In this document: positions 11,464-53,844 of the stretch, in pieces | How the letters are laid out: every line of letters starts with the position of its first letter | How positions within the stretch are numbered: position 1 is the first letter of the stretch | NCBI GenBank assembly: GCA_949283655.1 | Contig: CASDTH010000045.1 | Coordinates: 12,228 to 76,227, forward strand | Length of the DNA: 64,000 bases | Reading direction: 5' to 3' | Source: an uncultured bacterium | GTDB taxonomy: Bacteria > Bacillota > Clostridia > Oscillospirales > Acutalibacteraceae | Position numbers and translations under genes: made by a program | Notes under the pieces: model-generated | Told to the model about the DNA's origin: nothing | The model's input: the letters and a program-made list of their open reading frames with translations, nothing else | Databases searched by the model: none

Positions 11464-13182
11464 GTGGCGGCACAGGATATAAAAGCGGCCAAAACCAAAG
11501 CAGGATCAACTGTTTTGGAGGTTTTTCTCGCTACCACACCGTTTGTTTTCGGGCTGTATTATGAATATAGCGCCTGCTTTGCAGCAGTGCTTTTGCTGGG
11601 GCTGTTACTCTATCTGATAGCTATAGATCGCTCGCTGGAAGTCCGTGTGGGCGCAACCTCCGCCGCCCTGCTGGCTTTGCTCGCGGGCTACCTTGTCACC
11701 CCGCTCTGGGCAGTGGATAGCGGCATGGCTCTGCTCGGTTTTTTCAAGTTCTTACCCGCCGCCCTGTTTTGGCAGCTGCTCATGCAGCTCGGCCCGGAGG
11801 AGCGGGAAAAGCTCTTGCTCACCGTGCCGGTATCCGGCGCTGTGATGACGCTGCTCTCCTTTCCCACGCGGTGGATTCCGGCCCTTACACCCTATTTCTA
11901 TGCCTCCGGCAGGCTGGGCGGCTTTTTTCAATATTCCAACACGTTCGCCCTCTTCCTGCTGCTGGGGATTATCGTCCTCGCTTTTCAAAAACGGCGGCGA
12001 GCGTTTTGCCTGGCCGGGATTCTCGTGCTGCTCTTCGGTATTTTCGCCACCGGCAGCCGCACGGTTTTTGTGCTGACCGTTCTTGCTTTCCTCTGGATTT
12101 GTCTGGCGCGCAAGCGGCTGCGTCTCCCGCTGCTTATTATGCTCCTTGCGGGGGTTACGGGCGCGCTCCTCTTCGTCGCCGTCACCGGCAAGACGGATAC
12201 CATCGGCCGCTTTTTGACCATTTCACTCGAATCCAGCACGCTGCTCGGCCGGCTGCTCTATTACCGGGATGTGCTGCCCGTTATCCTGACGCACCCCTTT
12301 GGCTTGGGCTATATGGGATATTATTATGCCCAGGGCGGGTTCCAAACCGGCGTTTACGTTACAAAATTCGTCCACAACGAGCTATTGCAGTTCGCTGTGG
12401 ACGTGGGGTGGATTCCGGCTCTCCTGCTCGCGTGTGCGCTGCTGCAGCGGCTTTTTTCCAAACGGACGCCCACCATGCAGCGGATGCTGGTGTTCGCCAT
12501 CTGTGCGCACGCCATGCTGGATTTTGATTTGCAGTTTCTCGCTGTTTTTTTCGTGCTGCTGTTGGCGCTGGAGCCAGAGGAGGGGCGGGCTTTCACGCGC
12601 GCCTACAAGCGCCGCAGCCGCCTGCTCCCCATCGCCCCGGCAGGTGCACTCGCCGTGGCGTGCCTCTATTGCGGCGCGGCACTGTTTGCCGGATACCTTG
12701 GGCAGGATGCGCTGGCCTCCCGGCTCTACCCCGGTTACACGCCCTCGCAGCTGGTGCTGCTCGCCGGGGCCCGCACGCCGCGGGAGGGGGAAGCGCGCGC
12801 GAATGCGATTTTAAGGCGCAATGAATCGGTCGCCCTGGTGTGGGATGCAAAGGCGCTGGTGTGCGCCACGCAGGGCGATTTTGAAACGATGGTGCAATAT
12901 AAGCGGCAGGCGCTTGCCTGCGCGCGCTATGCGCTGCCGGAATATCTCGATTATTTTCAGCTGCTGCGCCGGGCGGCTGAGGCCTGCGAGCGGCAGGGGG
13001 ATGCGGCGCGTGCCGCGCTCTGCCGCCAGCGGATGTTAGAAATTCCGGATTTGCTGGATGAGGTGCGCGCCATTACCAGCCCGCTGGCCTGGAAAATTCA
13101 GGATCAGCCGGAGCTGACCCTGCCGGAGGAATACCAGGAGGAGCTCGCCAGAATCGGGCGGCAAGCGCCCGATTCTGAATAG
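11464..13182 (+). CDS. O-antigen ligase/Wzy_C-like polytopic membrane protein with a soluble C-terminal helical-repeat region
   Basis: 572 aa with many TM segments. FATGSRTVFVLTVLAF and HNELLQFAVDVGW resemble the Wzy_C core. GTG start after GGGAGGGG. Confidence 0.7.
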   Translation: MAAQDIKAAKTKAGSTVLEVFLATTPFVFGLYYEYSACFAAVLLLGLLLYLIAIDRSLEVRVGATSAALLALLAGYLVTPLWAVDSGMALLGFFKFLPAALFWQLLMQLGPEEREKLLLTVPVSGAVMTLLSFPTRWIPALTPYFYASGRLGGFFQYSNTFALFLLLGIIVLAFQKRRRAFCLAGILVLLFGIFATGSRTVFVLTVLAFLWICLARKRLRLPLLIMLLAGVTGALLFVAVTGKTDTIGRFLTISLESSTLLGRLLYYRDVLPVILTHPFGLGYMGYYYAQGGFQTGVYVTKFVHNELLQFAVDVGWIPALLLACALLQRLFSKRTPTMQRMLVFAICAHAMLDFDLQFLAVFFVLLLALEPEEGRAFTRAYKRRSRLLPIAPAGALAVACLYCGAALFAGYLGQDALASRLYPGYTPSQLVLLAGARTPREGEARANAILRRNESVALVWDAKALVCATQGDFETMVQYKRQALACARYALPEYLDYFQLLRRAAEACERQGDAARAALCRQRMLEIPDLLDEVRAITSPLAWKIQDQPELTLPEEYQEELARIGRQAPDSE

Positions 13183-13238: not shown

Positions 13239-13520
13239 GGAACATACTGTCATTTTCATTTGTGGCGCGGCCATGAGATTTTATTTATTTTTGAATGACT
13301 GACAGGTTTCGCTGTACGCGACTATCTTCTCTTACTTCTGTAAGAGAAGATAGGAAGAGAAGCAGCCAAGGGGTTTCACCCCTTGCCCCCGCGCACGGCC
13401 AGCGGCGACACTGAGATGTTTTTATACCTCTTTTAGGTGTTCGGCAAGCCACCCAAAAAACTCGCTGCCACACGGCAGCACAAACATTTTGGGCGTTTGC
13501 TTTTCGCCTGAAAGGCGAAA
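13236..13520 (-). repeat. Inverted, more degenerate copy of the B-type repeat unit (left arm of the 13.2-13.9 kb palindrome)
   Basis: 13256-13407 is the reverse complement of the B-unit tail seen at 48378-48520 and 13836-13918 (CATTTGTGG.GCGGCCATGAGATTTTATTT, CTGTACGCGAC, hairpin 13322-13353, AGAGAAGCAGCC). 13440-13521 is a weaker inverse of the B core. Confidence 0.75.
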
Positions 13521-13521
13521 A

Positions 13522-13627
13522 GTCCCCTCACGGGCCCGCCGCAAGTGCGCGGAGCCTGCCGCCGCTGGCCTACTGGTAGAGGGTTCCTCAAAGCAAGACT
13601 GAAGACCCCGTCAGGTTTCTCCCGGAG
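13522..13627 (+). repeat. Repeat module A, copy 1
   Basis: GTCCCCTCACGGGCCCGCCG..GCCTGCCGCCGCTGGCCTACTG..GGTTTCTCCCGGAG, shared with 48031-48129 and 48754-48870. Confidence 0.8.
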
Positions 13628-13628
13628 C

Positions 13629-13921
13629 CCGCAAGCCGTTCAGGGTCTCAAACGTAACGATAGGCCCAGGCGGCAGCTGCTGTCATTCACTGCGTGCACG
13701 TGAGGGCATTTGCTCGCTTTGCGGGCAAACGAACCTTCCCGCCTGTTTGAAGCCGCGTGAGCGGCTGAGTTCGGGAAGCGTTCGCCGAACGCGTTGTGGT
13801 GTAGCAAATTGATATACCGCCGCCGCAGTGCCGTTCACGGGGTCGAGGGGCGAAGCACCCGGCTGCTTCTCTTGGTTCGTTCTCTTGCTTCTGCAAGAGA
13901 ACCAGCATCGGCGTACAGGCC
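13629..13921 (+). repeat. Repeat module B, copy 1 (core 13629-13836 plus tail)
   Basis: Near-identical to 48170-48378 and 53437-53648 over the blocks ATAGGCCCAGGCGGC, CGTGAGGG, CGAACCTTCCCGCCTGTTTGA, GAGTTCGGGAAGCGTTCGCCGAACGCGTTGTGGTGT and ACCGCCGCCGCAGTGCCGTTC. Confidence 0.85.
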
Positions 13922-35118: not shown

Positions 35119-36147
35119 TCAAGGTTCCTCCTTCTTAAAAAAGATGGAAAATGTGCTTCCATTTTTATCAGATATAACTTTTATATATCCATATTGCTTA
35201 TTGATAATATCACGGGTTAAATACAGCCCAATTCCCACACCGTCAATGCCAGCAGAGTATTTTCCCCTGTAAAAGCGCCCAAAAATCTTTGCCTGCTCTT
35301 CTTCAGGAATCCCAATCCCGTTATCGGATATATCCAACCGCAGATAGGATGGATATTCTGTGATCGTTAATCCGACAATTCCACCGTTTGGCGTGTATTT
35401 CACAGCATTGTCGAGGATATTTGTAATGGCTTCTGCCGTCCAGTTGAAATCGAGCAGGGCTTCAAAATTCTGCTCGTAATCAAAGGCAATCGTTATATTT
35501 TTCTCTTTGGCCTTGGCATAGACAGTTTTTACCGCTTGCAGAATAATATTGTTTAAACTGTTCCGTTCGGGCTTCAAACGGATCATGCCGCTTTCCAAAC
35601 GGGACATTTTAATCAGGCTGTTTGTCAAAAAGGTGAGCTTTTCAAGAGAGGTCTGTAAAGTAGCAGTATATTCGCTGCGTTCCTCATCGGACAATTCTTT
35701 ATCATCCAGTAACTGTGCAAAGGTATTCGCCGCCGCCACTGGCGTTTTGATTTGGTGGGAAATATCGGAAATCAGCGTCTTGATCTGCTCCTTTTCCTGC
35801 GCCAGCATTTGATTCTGCGCTGTCAAAATATTGCGGAGCTTCAGAAGCTGATGCTGTAAACGGGCGGTCAGTGTGTCCTCGTTTTCAGGAAAAACGATCC
35901 GTTCCTGCTGCTCGACCAAAGCCTCTATCAGCAGCGTGATCTGTTCTAACAAATCATCGTGATATCGGTTGTGCAAGAAGTCGAGCAAAAACAATAAGCC
36001 GCATAAAATCGCAAAGGCACAAATGATAAGAAGCATAAGGGCAGAAGAGCTTTCCATAAAAAGCACATTGCCAACAGATACCGCCGCTATGACAATACCT
36101 ACAATCAAAATCAGTTTTCTGTAAATTCCAAAATGCTTCATTGTCAT
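35119..36147 (-). CDS. Intramembrane-sensing histidine kinase (BceS-like)
   Basis: 342 aa. Two N-terminal TM helices with almost no loop between them, H-box ISDISHQIKTPVAAA, and HATPase boxes (DNAVKYTP, GIGIGLYL). Confidence 0.85.
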   Translation of the reverse strand: MTMKHFGIYRKLILIVGIVIAAVSVGNVLFMESSSALMLLIICAFAILCGLLFLLDFLHNRYHDDLLEQITLLIEALVEQQERIVFPENEDTLTARLQHQLLKLRNILTAQNQMLAQEKEQIKTLISDISHQIKTPVAAANTFAQLLDDKELSDEERSEYTATLQTSLEKLTFLTNSLIKMSRLESGMIRLKPERNSLNNIILQAVKTVYAKAKEKNITIAFDYEQNFEALLDFNWTAEAITNILDNAVKYTPNGGIVGLTITEYPSYLRLDISDNGIGIPEEEQAKIFGRFYRGKYSAGIDGVGIGLYLTRDIINKQYGYIKVISDKNGSTFSIFFKKEEP

Positions 36148-36809
36148 TCTCCAAAGGTATAGCCCATACCAAAAACTGTTACGATATATTCCTGCTTTTC
36201 GTCGTTCAGCTTTTGCCGCAGCTGCTTAATATTCACACGCACGGTATTGTCATCAACAAAGCTCCCGTCTATATCCCAAAGCTGTTCTAAAAGCATTGCT
36301 TTCGTAACAACTCGACCTTTATTTTCTATTAAATAACAAAGCAGCTTGTATTCTGTTGCGGTCAGGTGTACTTGCTGTTCTTTCATTAAAACAATACATT
36401 TATCTGTATCGACTTCTAAATCCCTATATTTAATACGGGTATTTCCGCCGCCTGTCCGTTTTAAGACCGCTTGTACTTTTTTTCGCAAAACTTCAATCGA
36501 AAAGGGCTTTGGAATATAGTCATCGCAGCCAACGCCGAAGCCCTCCAGCATATCCTGCTCTGTATCATTCGCAGTTAGAAACAGGATCGGGATTTCAGCA
36601 GTTTCCCTGATCTTTTTACAGAATTCCATTCCGCTGCCATCCGGCAGATTGATGTCAAGCAGAAACAGATCATACCTTTGGTTTTGATAGGTCTGCAAGG
36701 CTTCCATATAGCCATAAACAGCCGTAATGGTATGATTGTCCTTTTCAAGCGCAATAGAAATCCCCTTGCTCAAAATCTTGTCATCTTCCAGTAAAAAGAT
36801 ATTTGCCAT
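36144..36809 (-). CDS. OmpR family response regulator (BceR-like)
   Basis: MANIFLLEDD.. receiver domain and a winged-helix C-terminus (VFGMGYTF). ATG 36809 is preferred over the track start at 36875. ATGA overlap with the kinase gene. Confidence 0.9.
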   Translation of the reverse strand: MANIFLLEDDKILSKGISIALEKDNHTITAVYGYMEALQTYQNQRYDLFLLDINLPDGSGMEFCKKIRETAEIPILFLTANDTEQDMLEGFGVGCDDYIPKPFSIEVLRKKVQAVLKRTGGGNTRIKYRDLEVDTDKCIVLMKEQQVHLTATEYKLLCYLIENKGRVVTKAMLLEQLWDIDGSFVDDNTVRVNIKQLRQKLNDEKQEYIVTVFGMGYTFGE

Positions 36810-36891
36810 AACCGCAAAACACACCACCTTTCCTCGGCATGTAGAACTGCAGGAGCAGACGCAGTAGTGCTGCACCTGCTCCGCAATTTAT

Positions 36892-39408
36892 TTAGTTTTC
36901 AAAATTGTGCAGCCGTTCTATCACTGTCTCCTTTGAGATAAACCGATAAACCAAAGACGGAACAGAAAGGCATATTACAAAAATAGCAATGATAAGGCCA
37001 ATAACGAGCGCCACAGGGTACTCAAACCTTGCATAATCCGCAATGCTCGGCACTGCGTCTGCCACCAGCAAGAGGAAAGCATTCCCCAAAGTCATAATCA
37101 GTATTGTCGAGATAAGCGCATAAAAGCCGCCTTCAAACGTTAAAATCTTTCTGATCTGTTTTTTGGTAGTCCCAATACTTTCCATGATGGCAAATTCGTT
37201 TTTCCTTGCAATAACGCTGGTAAGCATAACATTCACAAAGTTGATTAAGCCAATCACGATGAGCAGAATCGCCGCACCGTTACCAAGCAAACCGACGGAA
37301 AAATACATCTGATTGAATTCCTCCAACATAGAAACAGAGCTTTGAAAATTCCATTCACCGGAAGGCAAGGTGTTGTTGATTGCTATAAGTTCGTTATTTA
37401 CTTTATGCAACTGATTTGCGCTCTCAATGTCCACACCAATATCATATATAATTGCGGTGTCTGTCAATCGCTCCATTCCTGCGTCACTGACATAAATAAC
37501 ATCGGGGACAGCGTCCACCCATTTACGATGCCCGATATTGAAGTTATCATCAAGGTCTTTGTAGTTGAACGCTCCCGCCACTTGAAAATCTGCGGACTTC
37601 CCATCCGCACTATCCGAAGTCAAATTTAGAGTTTTACCGACCAGCGTAGCGTTCGGCGCAAAGGTATCCGTATCCATACCCACAATAACCGTACCGCCGT
37701 TTCGGAAAGCCTCCATATCAATCGGCGTACTATGGGTATCATTATATTGTTTCACAAGTTCATCATCAATGGTCACAACATAGCAGCCATAATCTCCGGC
37801 ATTGGAATAGTCTTGCAATTCAGAAATCATCTGCTCATAGGGTTTGCCATCGTGATATAACTCCTCGTGCTGCATTTTCAAGAAGCGCTCAAATTCCGAA
37901 GCATGAAAGCCGATTTCCGCCCAAGTAATTTTACTGGTGGAAATATTTGCAACCCCGTCAACCTGTGAAAGCTGCTCTATAAAATGCGCATCAAATTGCG
38001 GTATTTCTTTTTCGAGGTTTTCAAACTTACTAAACTGCAAGTCTGTATAACGAAAATCATATTTCATGTATTTATCAACATAGTTTTCTCCGTTGATACT
38101 TCCCAAAACGCCATTAACACCTAAAATCGTGACAGTACCCATAAAGAGGGACAGAAATACAAGCACAGCCCGCTTCTTATCACGGAAAACATTATGGAAC
38201 GCCATTACAGACAGCTTGCCGCCATTGGTTGAATTCCTGCTTTTCTTTTTCGAGGGTGCGAAATTTTGGTATCGCAGGGCTTCTACCGGAGAAATCTTCG
38301 CCGCCTTTTTTGCAGGCGCATTGCAAGCCATCCAAACTGTCACCGCAGAGAAAATAATGGACAGAATAAAGATAGCAGGATGGAAAAATACAACAGCGTC
38401 CATGCTTGATCTACCCTGTTCATATCCTTGCTGTAAAAACAACGGGACAAGGGCAAAGGATACCGCCGCAGCTAATACGATGCCGCCAGGGATTCCGATA
38501 CAGGCAAACTTAAATGCCTGTTTTTTTACAAGCGATTTCATTTGCTTCTGTGTTGTGCCAATCGTTTTCATCAATCCATAAAAGCGGGTGTCTTTGGAAA
38601 TAGAAATATACAGGACATTGTAAATCAGAAGATACCCACTTCCGACAATAAACAGTACCAAGAGAATAACCATCGCAATCATAGAGCCATTGGAAGAACT
38701 CATGGAAACCGATCCGTTAAAATACTGATTGTCGTTTAGAGATACATCTTCTTGAATTTGATAAAAGTCTCCCGGCATATCATTTAGGGTTAGAGACAAA
38801 GTCCCGTTTTCCTGCAAGGTATATCCGGCATTCGCACAGTAGCTTTCTGAAACAAAGGCCATTCCCGTCCCGGTGTAGGAACGAAACCAACCGCTTAATA
38901 AAAATGTCTTTTGCTGTTCTCCGTCTTTATCAAAATACGATAAGGGTATTTCCATTTGGAGAGTTGGATCGGTAATACTGAGCTGTTCAAGAGCGTCCTC
39001 AGACAGCATGATTTCATTTTCCTGCGTAGGGTAAGAGCCGTTGATATTGCTGATTGCTTCCTTAAAATGTTGTTCCCATTCTGTTTCATCGTAGTATTGA
39101 ATCGCTATGGACGAGTCTCGGCCTTCCGAATTTGTCTGGACAGCAGAGCCAACCATATATCGGGTGCCGATTGTTTTCACATAATCCAAAGAACGGATTT
39201 GCTGTTCCTGCTCGCTGGTGGGCGCATTTAATGTGACATCAGCATTTGAGCCTGCTGTACGCACGCTGGATAATTCCATATTCTGCATATAGTTAATGCC
39301 CAAGCTGAAAACCGTTGTAATCATAAAAGTGGTAAGGACAACCGCAAGTACCGCAAATGTATTGCGAATACGGTTTGCCTTCATCATCCCTTTTTCAACC
39401 TTTTTCAT
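36892..39408 (-). CDS. ABC transporter permease with two FtsX domains and a large extracellular region (BceB/MacB-like)
   Basis: ~838 aa. ATG 39408 (MKKVEKG) is preceded by AAGGAG. It has TM clusters at both ends and in the middle. Confidence 0.85.
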   Translation of the reverse strand: MKKVEKGMMKANRIRNTFAVLAVVLTTFMITTVFSLGINYMQNMELSSVRTAGSNADVTLNAPTSEQEQQIRSLDYVKTIGTRYMVGSAVQTNSEGRDSSIAIQYYDETEWEQHFKEAISNINGSYPTQENEIMLSEDALEQLSITDPTLQMEIPLSYFDKDGEQQKTFLLSGWFRSYTGTGMAFVSESYCANAGYTLQENGTLSLTLNDMPGDFYQIQEDVSLNDNQYFNGSVSMSSSNGSMIAMVILLVLFIVGSGYLLIYNVLYISISKDTRFYGLMKTIGTTQKQMKSLVKKQAFKFACIGIPGGIVLAAAVSFALVPLFLQQGYEQGRSSMDAVVFFHPAIFILSIIFSAVTVWMACNAPAKKAAKISPVEALRYQNFAPSKKKSRNSTNGGKLSVMAFHNVFRDKKRAVLVFLSLFMGTVTILGVNGVLGSINGENYVDKYMKYDFRYTDLQFSKFENLEKEIPQFDAHFIEQLSQVDGVANISTSKITWAEIGFHASEFERFLKMQHEELYHDGKPYEQMISELQDYSNAGDYGCYVVTIDDELVKQYNDTHSTPIDMEAFRNGGTVIVGMDTDTFAPNATLVGKTLNLTSDSADGKSADFQVAGAFNYKDLDDNFNIGHRKWVDAVPDVIYVSDAGMERLTDTAIIYDIGVDIESANQLHKVNNELIAINNTLPSGEWNFQSSVSMLEEFNQMYFSVGLLGNGAAILLIVIGLINFVNVMLTSVIARKNEFAIMESIGTTKKQIRKILTFEGGFYALISTILIMTLGNAFLLLVADAVPSIADYARFEYPVALVIGLIIAIFVICLSVPSLVYRFISKETVIERLHNFEN

Positions 39409-39424
39409 TGCTCCTTTATTTCGG

Positions 39425-40111
39425 TTAGCGTGCATATCTGACACCTCCCGAAACAACTTTCCCATCCTCAATGCGGATTGTCCGATCTGCCATCTGAGCG
39501 ATTTCCTCATTATGTGTAATCATAATTGTGGTCTGATAAAACTGCTTGCTGATAGACTGCATAAGCAAGATGACATCCATACTTGTTTTAGAGTCCAGAT
39601 TTCCGGTCGGCTCATCGGCAAGGATAATAGCGGGCTTGGTAGCCAATGCACGGGCAATCGCTACTCGCTGCTGCTGACCGCCGGACAGATTATTCGGCAT
39701 ATTTTTGAGCTTCTTTTCCAAACCGAGCGTATGAATGATCTGCCGGACAAACTCCGTATCGGCTTTCGCTCCGTCAATCTCAATAGGGTACACGATGTTT
39801 TCGTACACATTGAGGACAGGGAGCAGGTTGTAATTTTGAAAGACAAAGCCGATATTCCTGCGCCGGAAAATGGTTAATTCCTCGTCTTTCATTTTCAAAA
39901 GTTCTTTGCCACGGATCGTTACGCTGCCAGAAGTCGGATGATCCAAACCGCCGATCATGTTCAGCAATGTGGACTTGCCACTGCCGGAAGTACCGACCAC
40001 AGCGACAAATTCTCCCTCGTCCACGGAAATAGACACACCGTCCAAAGCGTGGACTTCATTTTCTCCGCTGCCATATATCTTTCGCAAATCCTTTGTTTCA
40101 AGTATTGCCAT
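39425..40111 (-). CDS. ABC transporter ATP-binding protein (BceA/MacB-NBD type)
   Basis: MAILETKDLRKIYG.., GTSGSGKST, LSGGQQQRVAIARAL, ILADEPTGNLD. ATG 40111 lies 8 nt after GGAGG. Confidence 0.9.
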   Translation of the reverse strand: MAILETKDLRKIYGSGENEVHALDGVSISVDEGEFVAVVGTSGSGKSTLLNMIGGLDHPTSGSVTIRGKELLKMKDEELTIFRRRNIGFVFQNYNLLPVLNVYENIVYPIEIDGAKADTEFVRQIIHTLGLEKKLKNMPNNLSGGQQQRVAIARALATKPAIILADEPTGNLDSKTSMDVILLMQSISKQFYQTTIMITHNEEIAQMADRTIRIEDGKVVSGGVRYAR

Positions 40112-48005: not shown

Positions 48006-48030
48006 GTTTGGATTTGCGGCGCAGCCAAAC

Positions 48031-48129
48031 GAGTCCGCCGCAGGTTTGTGGAGCCTGCCGCCGTTGGCCTATTGAAAGGCCTCAGCCTCAGCGATCAACT
48101 GAAGGCCCTGGGAGGTTTCTCCTGGAGAG
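48031..48129 (+). repeat. Repeat module A, copy 2 (5'-truncated)
   Basis: GAGCCTGCCGCCGTTGGCCTATTGAAAGG..GGTTTCTCCTGGAGAG aligns with 13550-13627. Confidence 0.75.
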
Positions 48130-48137
48130 ATGAGTAG

Positions 48138-48157
48138 GGAACGGTCTCGACCGTTCC
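48138..48157. repeat. 20-nt palindrome, module H (GGAACGGTC TC GACCGTTCC)
   Basis: Perfect 9-bp arms, preceded by TAG and followed by GACCCGG as at 53405. Confidence 0.8.
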
Positions 48158-48169
48158 GACCCGGTGAGA

Positions 48170-48552
48170 CCTGTAAGCAGTTCAGAGCCTCAAACATAAC
48201 GATAGGCCCAGGCGGCCTTAGATGCCACTCCCTGCGTGCGCGTGAGGGAATTTGCCCGCTATGCGGGCAAACGAACCTTCCCGCCTGTTTGAGCCGCCGT
48301 GAGGCGGTGAGTTCGGGAAGCGTTCGCCGAACGCGTTGTGGTGTGGCAAGTTTAAAAACCGCCGCCGCAGTGCCGTTCGCGGGGTCAAGGGGCGAAGCCC
48401 CCGGCTGGTTCTCTTCCTACCTTCTCTTACAGAAGTAAGAGAAGGTAGTCGCGTACAGCGAAACCAGGCACTCATTAAAAGCTAAAATAAAATCTCATGG
48501 CCGCACCACAAATGAAACATTGATGTTTGTTCCGCTCGGGCCGCAGGGGCCC
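48170..48552 (+). repeat. Repeat module B, copy 2 (core 48170-48378 plus complete tail)
   Basis: See copy 1. The tail carries hairpins GGGGCGAAGCCCC and 48417-48448, then CATGGCCGCACCACAAATGAAA and a terminal GGGCC..GGCCC hairpin. Confidence 0.85.
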
Positions 48553-48556
48553 AATT

Positions 48557-48723
48557 CAGACATCAGATATCAGACATGAGACGCCAGACGTGGAAGCTGG
48601 AAGCAATTGCCTCAGAGGCGGTGACAGAAAGTATTTTAGGGATAAAAATTTTCGCTTTTTATTGCGGAGGCAGGGCTTTATTGTAACCACATCTGAAATC
48701 TAACATCTGATATCTGGTATCTG
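48557..48723. repeat. S-K-S' palindromic element, copy 1
   Basis: Arms CAGACATCAGATATCAGACATGAGACGCCAGACGTGG (48557-48593) and CCACATCTGAAATCTAACATCTGATATCTGGTATCTG (48687-48723) flank a 72-nt core (48627-48698). That core is ~95% identical to 52205-52275. Confidence 0.8.
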
Positions 48724-48734
48724 TTTGGCGCTCG

Positions 48735-48870
48735 CTTGCCTGCAAGCAGGCAAGTCCCCTCACGAGCCCGCCGGAAGTAAGATGAGTTTGCCGCCGCTGG
48801 CCTACTGAAAGGCTCTGCCTCCGCGATAGACGGAAGGCCCCGAAAGGTTTCCGGCAATGCCTCGCCGGAG
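48735..48870 (+). repeat. Repeat module A, copy 3, with its own flanking hairpin
   Basis: CTTGCCTGC/GCAGGCAAG hairpin, then GTCCCCTCACGAGCCCGCCG..TTTGCCGCCGCTGGCCTACTGAAAGG..GGTTTCCGG. Confidence 0.75.
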
Positions 48871-48901
48871 GTTTGGTGATTCCGACAGGCCGGAACGGTC
48901 A

Positions 48902-48974
48902 AGTTAGACGGTAGATCGTAGAAATTAGATGGTAGATGAGAAAACCAAAAAGCCCTTGCCTCTGAGGCAGGAGC
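48902..48974 (+). repeat. Repeat module C, copy 1
   Basis: AGTTAGACGGTAGAT..GAAATTAGATGGTAGATGAGAAAACCAAAAAG plus a short hairpin and GCAGGAGC. It aligns with 53773-53844 and, with C/T changes, with 52131-52203. Confidence 0.75.
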
Positions 48975-51032: not shown

Positions 51033-52130
51033 ATGGATTTAAACCTTCGCGCCAAGCAGGAGTGCCTGTTTGACGAAATTTCGCTTGGCGAAGTGATGCT
51101 CCGGCTCGACCCCGGTGATGCGCGCATCAAAACAGCGCGCTCCTTCCGCGCATGGGAGGGCGGCGGCGAATACAATGTAGCGCGCGGGCTGCGGCGCTGC
51201 TTTGGCCTGCACACGGCGGTGGTCACCGCGCTGGCCGACAATGAAATCGGCCGCCTGATTGAGGATTTTATTTTGCAGGGCGGCGTGGATGCCTCCCTCA
51301 TTGAATGGAAGCCCTATGATGGCATTGGCCGCAGCGTACGCAACGGCTTGAATTTTACGGAGCGCGGCTTTGGCATCCGGGGCGCAGTGGGCGTATCGGA
51401 CCGTGGACACACCGCCGCCTCCCAGCTCAAGCCCGGCGATATTGACTGGGATTTCATCTTCGGCCGCCTCGGCGCACGCTGGCTGCACACGGGCGGTATT
51501 TTCGCCGCCCTGTCTGAAACGACCGCGCAGGTTGTGCTGGAGGCTGTGAAGGCCGCGAAAAAGTGGGGCACCGCCGTCTCCTATGATCTCAACTACCGCC
51601 CCTCCCTCTGGAAGGATATCGGCGGGCAGGCAAAAGCGCAGGAGGTAAACCGTGAGCTTGCCAAATACGTGGATGTGATGATCGGCAATGAAGAGGATTT
51701 CACCGCCTGCCTCGGCTTTGAGGTGCCCGGCAACGATGCGAGCCTCAAAACACTCAGCATTGAGGGCTACGGGAAAATGATTGAGCAGGCCGTGAAGGTC
51801 TACCCGAATTTCAAGGTAGTAGCTACCACTCTGCGCGCGGTGAAGACTGCCACGGTCAACGACTGGAGTGCTATCCTGTGGGCGGATGGTCAGCTGTATC
51901 GCGGCCTTGACCTGCCTGCTCTCGAAATTTACGATCGTGTTGGCGGCGGCGACAGCTTCGCTTCCGGTCTCATCTACGGCCTGATGACCACGGGTGACGC
52001 GCAGCAGGCGGTGAATTTTGGCGTTGCGCATGGCGCGCTTGCCATGACTACGCCCGGCGACACCTCCATGGCCAGCCTCAAAGAGGTGGAAAACGTGATG
52101 AAGGGCGCCGGCGCCAGGGTGCAAAGGTGA
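51033..52130 (+). CDS. kdgK: PfkB family sugar kinase (2-dehydro-3-deoxygluconokinase-like)
   Basis: 365 aa with the C-terminal VGGGDSFASGLIYG motif. It lies between uxuA and eda. Confidence 0.8.
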   Translation: MDLNLRAKQECLFDEISLGEVMLRLDPGDARIKTARSFRAWEGGGEYNVARGLRRCFGLHTAVVTALADNEIGRLIEDFILQGGVDASLIEWKPYDGIGRSVRNGLNFTERGFGIRGAVGVSDRGHTAASQLKPGDIDWDFIFGRLGARWLHTGGIFAALSETTAQVVLEAVKAAKKWGTAVSYDLNYRPSLWKDIGGQAKAQEVNRELAKYVDVMIGNEEDFTACLGFEVPGNDASLKTLSIEGYGKMIEQAVKVYPNFKVVATTLRAVKTATVNDWSAILWADGQLYRGLDLPALEIYDRVGGGDSFASGLIYGLMTTGDAQQAVNFGVAHGALAMTTPGDTSMASLKEVENVMKGAGARVQR

Positions 52131-52320
52131 AGTTAGATGTCAGATTCCGGACATGAGACGTCAGACGTGAAAACCAAAAGGCTTTCGCCACAAAGGCGGG
52201 AGCGGAAAGTATTTTAGGGATAAAAACTTCGCTTTTTATTGCGGAGGCGGGGTTTTATTGTAACCACATCTGAAAGCGGACATCCAATTTCCAGCATCGA
52301 ATATCTAAATTCGCATCTGC
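52131..52320. repeat. S-K-S' palindromic element, copy 2
   Basis: It starts at the nucleotide after the kdgK stop. AGTTAGATGTCAGATTCCGGACATGAGACGTCAGACGTG, core 52205-52275, then CCACATCTGAAAGCGGACATCC.. Confidence 0.8.
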
Positions 52321-52365: not shown

Positions 52366-53283
52366 ATGAAAAAATTACAGCTTTCGAGGCTTTCGGTTTG
52401 CTACTTCTGCTGCGCGGTGACGCTTTCCTTCCTCCAGCAGTTTGTATTTTCTTTTCTGTCCAGTTTCATCTCCTCCCGCAGTGCGGTTTTGGCGCAGATG
52501 GCAGTCCTCTTGCTGACAGCTATATTGGGGGCGGCTGCGATTGGCTCCTTTTTCCGATTTGCGCGCAAGGATGGGCAGCGCAAGGGGCTGGCAGTTGCGG
52601 CGTTTTTTCTTTTGTTCTTGGCAATCATCAATGAAATTGCTTTCAAAGGGCTATTTCAACCAAATGGTTCCGTCGCTTATAAAACGGCGTTTTATGCAAT
52701 AATCACCTTATTCAGCATTCAGACGCCTTTGACACTGATGGCCATACAATATGCGGAAGTCATTTCCAAAAAGAAATTAGTTGTGGCCACAGCGCTGCTT
52801 TATGTGTTAAGCCTGTTATGCAGCATCGTCATGCAGGGTTACAGCTTTTGGCTGATTGAATGCGTATCCCTATCCCAATGGGTACCCTCTGCGCAATACA
52901 CAATCAATGGCATCGGCTGGCTCGTTGTCCGCCTACTATCGTTTGCCGTGGCGATATTACAAGCGGTTTCCGCCGTGCTTTTCCTGCGGTTGATCCGTGC
53001 GGTGGAGCAGCCCTCGCCGGCCGGATGGGCGGGGCAACCGCAGCAAGCCGCGGGCATCGCCGGGAGCGATGCACCTTTGCGCCCGGGCGTTTGCCCGAAC
53101 TGCGGGCGGGATAACGGGCCCGAGGCCAATTTCTGCGCGGTGTGCGCTATCCCTTTAAAGCGCCCGGAGCCCCAAAGCGGCCTGGAGGGCTCCGGCTCCG
53201 GCCGCCGCTGCCCCTCCTGCGGCGTGCCGCTGGAGGCCGGCGAACACTATTGCCCGCTTTGCGGGAGCAAGGCGGAGGAATAG
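52366..53283 (+). CDS. Polytopic membrane protein with a C-terminal double zinc-ribbon
   Basis: 305 aa. About 6 hydrophobic segments, then CPNCGRDNGPEANFCAVCA and CPSCGVPLEAGEHYCPLCG. GAGGGG RBS. Confidence 0.6.
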   Translation: MKKLQLSRLSVCYFCCAVTLSFLQQFVFSFLSSFISSRSAVLAQMAVLLLTAILGAAAIGSFFRFARKDGQRKGLAVAAFFLLFLAIINEIAFKGLFQPNGSVAYKTAFYAIITLFSIQTPLTLMAIQYAEVISKKKLVVATALLYVLSLLCSIVMQGYSFWLIECVSLSQWVPSAQYTINGIGWLVVRLLSFAVAILQAVSAVLFLRLIRAVEQPSPAGWAGQPQQAAGIAGSDAPLRPGVCPNCGRDNGPEANFCAVCAIPLKRPEPQSGLEGSGSGRRCPSCGVPLEAGEHYCPLCGSKAEE

Positions 53284-53330
53284 ATATCAGATGTCAGACA
53301 TGAGACATCAGACGAGAAAGCCGGGAACGG
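53281..53330 (+). repeat. S module (YAGAY tract) starting at the stop codon of the preceding gene
   Basis: TAGATATCAGATGTCAGACATGAGACATCAGACGAGAAAG. Confidence 0.7.
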
Positions 53331-53404
53331 TTGCCTCCAAGGAGATTGCAGGTGGCTTTCCATCCGGCCGGGTCAAGACCCGACCCTACAATCAACTTTC
53401 GTAG

Positions 53405-53424
53405 GGAACGGCCTTGACCGTTCC
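53405..53424. repeat. 20-nt palindrome, module H (GGAACGGCC TT GACCGTTCC)
   Basis: One mismatch in 9-bp arms. A partial GGGTCAAGACCCGACC lies just upstream at 53368-53385. Confidence 0.75.
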
Positions 53425-53436
53425 GACCCGGCGTGA

Positions 53437-53648
53437 CCTGTAAGCAGTTCAGAGGCGCAAGCGGAAGGATAGGCCCAGGCGGCATTTGCTGACACTGACT
53501 GCGTGCACGTGAGGGGACTTTTTAGCCCGAAGGGCAAAAAGCGAACCTTCCCGCCTGTTTGAAGCCGCGTGAGCGGCTGAGTTCGGGAAGCGTTTGCCGA
53601 ACGCGTCGTGGTGTGGCAAATTGATAAACCGCCGCCGCAGTGCCGTTC
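53437..53648 (+). repeat. Repeat module B, copy 3 (core only)
   Basis: Same conserved blocks as copies 1 and 2. Hairpin 1 is replaced by CTTTTTAGCCC/GGGCAAAAAG, and the tail is replaced by an unrelated hairpin CATCCTTT..AAAGGATG. Confidence 0.85.
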
Positions 53649-53746
53649 CTCCACGTCCTTTTGCATCCTTTACCGACGAGGGAAAAGGATGGGCCCCGCG
53701 GCCTGAGCGGAAAATAGAAAATATAGCTTAGTCAATAGAACACCCC

Positions 53747-53766
53747 GGAACGGTCAAGACCGTTCC
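53747..53766. repeat. 20-nt palindrome, module H (GGAACGGTC AA GACCGTTCC)
   Basis: Perfect 9-bp arms. Confidence 0.8.
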
Positions 53767-53772
53767 CTATAA

Positions 53773-53844
53773 AGTTAGACGGTAAATTTTAGAAATTAGA
53801 TATTAGATGAGAAAATCAAAAAGTTCTGCCCCAGAAGCAGGAGC
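53773..53844 (+). repeat. Repeat module C, copy 2
   Basis: AGTTAGACGGTAAATTTTAGAAATTAGATATTAGATGAGAAAATCAAAAAG..GCAGGAGC. Confidence 0.75.

Follow-up and report, generated by a model that had tools for sequence, protein, structure and literature searches.

A repeated intergenic element

The stretch of DNA analysed here, referred to below as the window, comprises 64,000 nucleotides (nt) of contig CASDTH010000045.1 from an uncultured bacterium of the Acutalibacteraceae. It contains three copies of a core of about 210 nt, termed type A, on the plus strand. Copy 1 (13629-13836) is found between a Wzy_C gene and a convergent clpC-like gene, copy 2 (48170-48378) in a hexuronate gene cluster between a GFO/IDH/MocA gene and uxuA, and copy 3 (53437-53648) between an open reading frame (ORF) for a zinc-ribbon membrane protein and eda. 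Each core carries a hairpin module at the apex of its fold. This module is kept by selection after insertion, is strand-specific and is common to unrelated-looking repeats in several phyla.

An earlier note, made from the sequence alone, had described three direct plus-strand copies, and these are real: they are 84-95% identical over their aligned blocks (MAFFT and a repeat finder), and the 21-mer CGAACCTTCCCGCCTGTTTGA occurs three times in the window, against no occurrence expected from shuffles. The five blocks that had been called invariant are all so in a three-way alignment. The hairpins between them vary in the way that had been proposed: hp1 exists as two alternative stems, TTTGCCCGC/GCGGGCAAA and CTTTTT(A/G)GCCC/GGGCAAAAAG; hp2 is GCCGC-GTGA-GCGGC or GCCGCC-GTGA-GGCGGT; and hp5 (48417-48448) matches an inverted copy at 13322-13353. 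Upstream of every copy lies a plus-strand gene, ending at 13182 (Wzy_C), 48005 (GFO/IDH/MocA) and 53283 (the zinc-ribbon ORF), and all copies in the window are intergenic. ORFs drawn across the copies differ in strand and frame. The core folds far better than its shuffles (z = -6.9 for the plus strand, -5.0 for the minus strand).

That description had to be altered. The repeated unit is larger than 210 nt, since some copies have a 3' extension and a hairpin-rich 5' leader. The statement that all copies lie on the plus strand is correct for the type-A subfamily only, because the minus strand carries, at about 13271-13575, an inverted and diverged copy that belongs to another subfamily, type B.

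The apical hairpin module

The module is an apical hairpin of 45-55 nt, in which a helix, P1, is followed by an unpaired strand, (0-2 C)UGUUUGA, a variable helix, P2, a second unpaired strand, GAGUU, and the returning strand of the first helix, P1'. In copy 2 it occupies positions 48272-48325 of the plus strand and consists of P1 CGAACCUUCCCG, loop CCUGUUUGA, P2 GCCGCC-GUGA-GGCGGU, loop GAGUU and P1' CGGGAAG(C)GUUCG. It is matched by a covariance model, R1, at 68.6 bits (E = 6e-15) and folds at -26.4 kcal/mol (z = -3.6). The modules of copy 1 (13730-13783) and copy 3 (53542-53595) score 66.8 and 65.0 bits, respectively. Type B shares the architecture of type A, to which it is about 72% identical; in its module P1 CCUUCCCG/CGGGAAG is exchanged for GCGCACAAA/UUUGUGCGC, with the loops unchanged. 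P2 is 7-43 nt long in the consensus. Across phyla, 12 loop bases are invariant while both flanking helices covary freely. The conserved structure comprises two helices and one asymmetric internal loop, and the lineages have no tertiary partner or pseudoknot in common.

The helices are supported by covariation, which becomes strong once more copies and lineages are aligned. In a MAFFT alignment of 21 sequences from seven lineages, scored against a hand-drawn structure, 86% of the cells pair and double changes are seen in 11 of the 14 pairs. The covariation score is 0.543, compared with 0.129 for shuffled alignments (none of 500 reaches the observed value) and no more than 0.122 when the partners are slid. 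A model-fitted alignment of 82 matches (52 distinct) shows double changes in 13 of the 14 pairs and a score of 0.581 versus 0.134, although CCCG/CGGG was fixed by the search pattern in most sequences and this second alignment was fitted to the structure. The helices contain 14 G-U or U-G cells and not a single A-C or C-A cell, which indicates that one particular strand folds; the sense strand has the better fold in 38 of the 52 copies.

P2 lengths of 7, 8, 15-18, 25 and 30 nt would break any reading frame, and the module is thus non-coding. Regardless, a 102-amino acid (aa) ORF spans copy 2 and is matched by one database ‘protein’, which might suggest that the similarity stems from a coding gene or a fragment of one. 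This sequence is the single homologue among 5.8 billion proteins, and it is itself another copy of the repeat; moreover, the open frames and strands differ among copies, and the length differences in P2 are not multiples of three. Chance similarity is countered by motif counts far above those in shuffled sequences. A coding origin or chance is effectively refuted and carries next to no weight in what follows.

Conservation at orthologous sites

The window is 87-93% identical to contigs of a metagenome-assembled genome (MAG) of Candidatus Fimivicinus intestinavium, and its host is consequently taken to be a congener of that species (Oscillospiraceae; chicken-gut Clostridia). Copies 2 and 3 lie at orthologous sites in both Fimivicinus species, and copy 1 probably does too. 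The orthologue of copy 2, in locus L031, is 87% identical, and that of copy 3 is located in L018. When three orthologous pairs are compared, 3 of 162 nt differ within the module and 69 of 467 nt in the rest of the core, so that the module changes about 8-fold less (Fisher p = 6e-7). As the third codon positions of the flanking genes are 70-90% identical, the rest of the core drifts roughly neutrally. In a third related genome, an aspartokinase gene is followed by two copies in tandem; an identical module is found there, with an amino-acid identity of only 77% for the ORF read across the element.

Gene conversion between copies does occur, with hp1 and hp5 swapped wholesale between orthologues. 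The hp5 hairpin at 48417-48448 differs from its counterpart in L031 by several compensatory paired changes (CUACCUUCUCUUAC/GUAAGAGAAGGUAG versus GUUCAUUCUCUUGC/GCAAGAGAAUGAAC), and both variants are present among paralogues.

Occurrence in other phyla

The motif was sought by scanning one genome per species for the pattern CCCGCCTGTTTGA-N(8-30)-GAGTTCGGG, with about 1.6 chance matches expected. The scan returned 50 loci, in a cross-phylum set that is biased toward exact loop matches by a pattern fixing 22 bases; a metagenome scan added four further true examples. The motif is also present in multi-copy repeats of several Burkholderiales MAGs, in Stagnimonas and Nevskiaceae (Gammaproteobacteria; Nevskiales), in two Rufibacter species (Bacteroidota), in an Endomicrobium MAG and in two unclassified MAG lineages. 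In every lineage the module forms the tip of a long rod-like fold or giant palindrome, or lies close to it, and nothing else can be aligned between lineages. A relaxed search of the same loci revealed variants of P1 in which even CCCG/CGGG is replaced and the loops are unchanged. These include GCCGCG/CGCGGC, GCCGCA/UGCGGC, CACAAA/UUUGUG, GCCCAAAA/UUUUGGGC, CGGGGAA/UUUCCCG and UUUCUCAA/UUGAGAAA.

The last of these variants belongs to the Endomicrobium MAG (L047), in which a diverged second module lies about 290 nt downstream of the first on its strand. Its 5' loop is 7 nt long and lacks the leading C, giving the minimal loop pair UGUUUGA/GAGUU. In Stagnimonas aquatica (L012, 4000-4680), two modules and a central (CCACAG)n array form a near-perfect palindrome of about 680 bp inside a flagellar export operon, between fliP and fliR. 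Rufibacter psychrotolerans (L020) and R. sediminis (L029) have the element at orthologous sites, upstream of a gene for a 1164-aa amidohydrolase/beta-propeller protein; the element is 77% identical overall and the gene 84.5%, with the module identical.

Insertion history

Model R1 picks out at least 35 modules in the F. intestinavium MAG, distributed over 22 loci; 23 of them are type A and 12 type B. Many of these copies lie about 40 nt from contig ends, as expected of repeats, which break assemblies. In more distant relatives the corresponding operons are compact. The gap between the GFO/IDH/MocA gene and uxuA is 54 nt (UxuA 93% identical) or 4 nt (UxuA 86-87%), and that between kdgK and eda is 39 nt (L062), 13 nt (L064) or about 140 nt (L060); no R1 match was found in these compact loci. 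Their counterparts in the window measure 1056 and 1777 nt. Thus, the Fimivicinus lineage gained about 1 kb and about 1.8 kb of repeats, plus one ORF, within the hexuronate cluster. Target-site duplications were not readable at the unit boundaries, and the divergence of the relatives' empty sites is too great for the junctions to be placed. From the distribution of the family we infer that it spread by some transposition-like process.

The additional ORF (52366-53283) encodes a 305-aa membrane protein with two C-terminal zinc ribbons, which lies between kdgK and eda in this lineage only and is flanked on both sides by arms of a second repeat family, ‘S’, described below. Upstream of copy 2, the intergenic segment 48006-48133 is 97.7% identical between the window and F. 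intestinavium, compared with 79% at the third codon positions of the adjacent gene, which could reflect either constraint or recent gene conversion.

Subfamilies, extensions and mosaic context

The earlier note read the core as a structured RNA or a REP-like module (REP, repetitive extragenic palindromic sequence), and this reading is supported: it came through comparison with Rfam, the covariation analysis and the examination of orientation. It needs to be widened nevertheless: the 210-nt core forms one arm within a family of mosaic repeats, often in inverted pairs, that resembles bacterial interspersed mosaic elements (BIMEs) or REPINs, and what matters in it is the hairpin of about 50 nt found across phyla. 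Type-A arms and their type-B partners usually form inverted pairs, mixed with other small palindromic modules, and are inserted into intergenic gaps, some of them inside operons. Each lineage has its own spacing between the members of an inverted pair: in Fimivicinus they lie about 280 nt apart, in Burkholderiales 370-400 nt and in Nevskiales 270-300 nt. Folded in full, such a pair makes a palindrome of about 680 bp. Other copies are arranged in convergent pairs (about 375 nt) or in tandem.

Several pieces of type B lie in the window, all on the minus strand. The inverted copy at 13271-13575, which includes a 3' extension, stands head-to-head with copy 1, as seen in alignments and as an inverted repeat. 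Its slightly decayed module (AUGUUUGUG...GCGAGUU; 13459-13486) is matched by R1 at 18.6 bits (E = 0.019). A 5' fragment (48029-48074; direct-repeat family D7, compared with intact B copies) abuts the stop codon of the gene upstream of copy 2. A 5' half (48722-48807) lies tail-to-tail with copy 2 and was recognised from the orthologous alignment and repeat families D5 and D7. This half is truncated exactly at CAAAC|UGUUUGA, the start of an ‘S’ repeat, and the copy is intact in F. intestinavium.

Two alternative 3' ends are found among many copies. In one, CGCGGGGTCRAGGGGCGAAGCCCC...CTTCTCTT is followed by hp5; in the other, a terminator-like hairpin, GCCGTTCAYAACGGC, is followed by CCCTTTTG. 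The 3' extension of copy 2 (48379-48505, plus strand), made up of a GGGGCGAAGCCCC hairpin, a CU-rich tail and hp5, is of a type also found after type-B copies, while that of copy 1 (13837-13901, plus strand) contains a terminator-like hairpin at 13852-13869. Many 3' ends have the look of an intrinsic terminator, with a G+C-rich hairpin and a U-tract on the sense strand, as in GGCCGTTCACAACGGCC followed by CCTTTTG in L040 and in the copy 1 hairpin. No terminator-like end was detected 3' of copies 2 and 3.

A separate 24-nt hairpin with a GTAG tag accompanies the copies. On the plus strand, GTAGGGAACGG-N6-CCGTTCC at 48134-48157 forms a REP-like module upstream of copy 2, and a second GTAG-tagged hairpin at 53401-53424 marks the left boundary of the copy 3 unit. 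An ATAG-tagged inverted partner on the minus strand (53746-53770) marks the right boundary, so that inverted 24-nt hairpins at 53401 and 53770 bracket a unit of about 370 bp. Five further GTAG-tagged hairpins are present in F. intestinavium loci. The hairpin has a GTAG or ATAG foot and the form (G/A)TAGGGAACGG-N6-CCGTTCC, is seen outside the window in L009, L015, L016, L031 and L040, and resembles the canonical GTAG REP. GTAG REPs have been reported from Proteobacteria, Cyanobacteria, Chloroflexi and the Planctomycetes-Verrucomicrobia-Chlamydiae (PVC) group, with none reported from Firmicutes (PMC3733652).

The second palindromic repeat family, ‘S’, occupies 48556-48723 and 52130-52298, with pieces of its arms at 53282-53351, 48901-48952 and 53772-53823. 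It has inverted arms of 7-nt units (TCAGACA/TCAGATA) around a centre of about 70 nt, and it substitutes for the 3' half of one type-B copy in the window. Elsewhere in the window, a low-GC stretch at 36000-40000 (0.42-0.44, compared with about 0.55 in the remainder) carries an 872-aa ORF on the minus strand and may have been horizontally acquired.

Searches for known relatives

No family in Rfam 15 matches the core. The whole window gave no match at gathering score, the core in 1 kb gave nothing at E<=10, and the best hit to a 74-nt slice was a chance match to CRISPR-DR33 (13.9 bits, E = 1.2); eight loci from other lineages gave no match. Plasmid and phage collections and viral contigs contained no match to the element or the motif, and ARAGORN found no tRNA or tmRNA genes in the window. 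Literature searches with sequence strings (CGCCTGTTTGA, CCUGUUUGA, GAGUUCGGG and others) returned primers and siRNAs only. An all-against-all comparison of ORFs from the different lineages gave only the SDR and amidohydrolase families and thus no shared neighbour gene, and Pfam scans of the neighbours gave housekeeping genes.

Several known motifs were considered as identities for the loop and rejected. By inspection of the consensus, it is not a kink-turn, since the tandem G-A pairs abut P2 without a bulge and the 2-4-nt bulge is three non-canonical pairs away. It is not a hammerhead: the loops CUGUUUGA and GAGUU lie between two helices only, with no three-way junction of the CUGANGA...GAAA type. 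The consensus does not fit sarcin-ricin or attC loops either, and an IS110 bridge RNA would need variable loops and fixed stems, the reverse of the pattern seen. Mimicry of 5S rRNA loop C by the antisense strand (CCGAACUC) was dropped because the CGG part belongs to P1 and varies, as in type B. An antisense promoter resembling those of extracytoplasmic function (ECF) or sigma-E factors, GAACTC-N16-TCAAAC, was dropped because the 16-nt spacing is found only in Fimivicinus, the spacing elsewhere being 7-30 nt. In type-A copies, pairing between the loop and an upstream CUCAAAC was also considered, but it shows no covariation with the GCGCAAGCGG variant.

Possible functions of the element

It is suggested, with roughly even confidence, that the core is the type-A arm of an old, non-coding and non-autonomous mosaic repeat, akin to REPs, BIMEs and miniature inverted-repeat transposable elements (MITEs), which carries a selected, strand-specific hairpin that probably acts in host transcripts. 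A role at the RNA level, in which a factor-binding hairpin would shape the 3' ends, stability or segmentation of mRNAs, is the best-supported reading and one in which we place middling confidence. The module would work as a folded single strand, most probably RNA. The loop bases are predicted to form stacked tandem G-A/A-G pairs together with U-G/U-U pairs and a 2-4-nt bulge, giving a surface that is proposed as the docking site for a putative, widely conserved trans-acting factor such as an RNA-binding protein or RNase. Stable hairpins would come from the remainder of the element, which in many copies would also contribute a terminator-like 3' end; through these, it would influence the 3' end of the host mRNA, its stability or its segmentation.

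The RNA-level reading is preferred because of the sense orientation, the G-U asymmetry, the terminator-like ends and the constraint that persists after insertion. Sense copies inside or just after host transcription units are necessarily co-transcribed with them. Of 14 independent type-A loci, 11 have the copy in the same orientation as the upstream gene, a bias that is suggestive only.

A number of observations weigh against a role in RNA, or against the strength of the case for it. The orientation bias is absent in other lineages, as judged from crude gene calls, and the read-through transcript of an inverted pair carries one of its modules antisense. No sigma-70-like promoter of the element's own was found upstream of the copies, and some of them, such as copy 3, have a weak terminator-like end or none. 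The strand asymmetry is no proof of RNA, because DNA hairpins also tolerate G-T wobbles. Invariance of CCCG/CGGG and of part of the loop arises partly by construction, as the search pattern fixed 22 bases, and the variants found later (type B, L011, L014, L016, L046 and L047) relieve this bias only in part. Gene conversion could also contribute to the uniformity of the module, although it cannot easily explain uniformity of the module alone in paralogues that differ by about 20% elsewhere.

REPs, the ends of IS200/IS605 elements and integron attC sites are recognised by their enzymes via unpaired bases. The main rival explanation extends this logic to the present element: the hairpin would be a mobilisation signal in single-stranded DNA (ssDNA) or a cruciform, its unpaired bases read by a transposase or nuclease encoded elsewhere, for instance a TnpA-Y1 or RAYT-like (REP-associated tyrosine transposase) HUH enzyme, and any effects on RNA would be by-products. 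Conserved unpaired bases, free stems and a variable terminal structure are what attC and REP recognition would lead one to expect. The family is multi-copy and non-coding, lies at contig ends, has empty sites in close relatives and is scattered sporadically over Bacillota, Bacteroidota, Pseudomonadota and Endomicrobium. It is nested with other palindromic repeats, with a GTAG-tagged REP-like hairpin at unit boundaries, and the break in one type-B copy coincides exactly with the 5' edge of UGUUUGA. The inverted dimers or giant palindromes in three lineages recall the head-to-head and tail-to-tail dimers of REPs and REPINs (PMC3733652). Yet the 64-kb window and about 60 loci show no transposase, integrase or HUH gene next to any copy, no target-site duplication could be read, and the GT[AG]G foot of REPs is missing from the module. 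The two Fimivicinus species show no difference in presence or absence at three sites, and hence no sign of recent movement. A mobilisation signal should decay in immobile copies, whereas the module is about 8-fold more conserved than its surroundings. These considerations leave mobilisation as a possible explanation of the hairpin, if a somewhat doubtful one.

Other explanations treat the hairpin as part of an RNA in its own right. Each copy might be an independent small RNA (sRNA) gene, about 220-330 nt long and equipped with a promoter and terminator of its own, divergent A/B pairs being transcribed outward from a central spacer and the hairpin serving as the functional domain of a trans-acting RNA. 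The sense-oriented terminator-like hairpin and U-tract, the spacer of about 95 nt between the 5' ends of divergent pairs, the strong predicted structure (z = -6.9) and the constraint on the module are all in keeping with this. It is made very unlikely by the lack of a conserved sigma-70-like promoter upstream of the copies, by a 5' boundary that is variable and mosaic, by the convergent and tandem arrangements that also occur, and by the number of copies, dozens of near-identical sRNA genes per genome being unusual. Slighter still is the chance that the rod-like repeats carry a self-cleaving, catalytic or ligand-binding RNA, as retrozymes and satellites carry hammerheads. Twelve invariant loop bases between freely covarying helices, a position at the tip of rod-like repeats and absence from Rfam would suit such an RNA, but two helices and one internal loop offer no conserved tertiary partner or pseudoknot, CUGUUUGA/GAGUU does not fit the hammerhead core CUGANGA/GAAA, and no Rfam ribozyme model matches at E<=10. 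A broader and bolder proposal is that the UGUUUGA/GAGUU hairpin is a new, self-sufficient motif, either the docking site of a universal factor (Nus-type or RNase) or a minimal catalytic RNA, which has been carried between phyla by mobile palindromic repeats and selected at each insertion. This we regard as unlikely.

Comparison with known systems

The element shares many features with REPs, BIMEs and REPINs. It is intergenic, non-coding and multi-copy and folds on one strand; it is mosaic with other modules, often lies at gene 3' ends and inside operons, and is accompanied by a true GTAG-tagged 24-nt hairpin. Its inverted dimers fold separately or as one long hairpin, and heterodimers of subfamilies are formed, here A + B (PMC3733652, PMC6006769). 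In having many intergenic copies, commonly arranged as inverted dimers, it agrees with GTAG-type REPs. It differs in that its arms are multi-helix units of about 210-330 nt, while REPs are palindromes of 20-40 nt. The 54-nt module and the 210-nt core lack a GT[AG]G foot, which is present instead in the separate 24-nt hairpin beside the copies, and neither a RAYT gene nor a REPtron turned up in the window or among about 60 loci. REP sequences are also lineage-specific, whereas the loop described here is identical across phyla.

ERIC/IRU, Correia/NEMIS, RUP and BOX are bacterial MITEs or long palindromes of 100-700 bp that act at the RNA level. The likeness to them is that the whole element can be folded, is inserted in transcribed intergenic regions, has empty sites in close relatives and can add hairpins, terminators or RNase sites to host mRNAs. 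Unlike in MITEs, no terminal inverted repeat with a target duplication could be defined, no insertion sequence that might be the parent came to light, and conservation is at the apex of the fold rather than at the termini. Integron attC sites offer a different parallel, being recognised as a folded single strand with conserved extrahelical bases, covarying stems and a variable terminal structure (here P2, of 7-43 nt), and lying 3' of genes in the orientation of the gene. The consensus, however, has no R''/R' boxes (RYYYAAC / GTTRRRY), there is no cassette array and no integrase nearby, and the two conserved loop strands are not complementary.

The sequence UGUUUGAG is identical to the core of the boxA antitermination element of mycobacterial rrn leaders, and it is close to the Gram-positive form, UGUUCUUUGAAAA. 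The boxA site of NusB/NusE is a linear, single-stranded 11-12-mer with no internal loop, in which the GAGUU strand has no counterpart, and a resemblance over eight matching bases could be due to chance. A boxA-type signal would nonetheless make sense for an element that needs read-through inside operons.

Interspersed palindromes such as REPs, BIMEs and MITEs are usually confined to single lineages, and their recognition is attributed to transposases that are likewise lineage-specific, whereas here a 12-base loop is identical from Clostridia to Bacteroidota and Proteobacteria. The identity of the loop across unrelated repeats points to what may be an undescribed functional motif in RNA or ssDNA. 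As the module measures 46-54 nt and is present in cultivable bacteria (Rufibacter, Stagnimonas), this is directly testable. Should the motif bind a conserved host factor, it would illustrate how selfish repeats become tolerable or useful inside operons, and would add to the small list of RNA or ssDNA modules that cross phyla. In its conservation at orthologous sites, with stems that covary freely, the hairpin follows a pattern that is normally that of a riboswitch, a ribozyme or a universal protein-binding site.

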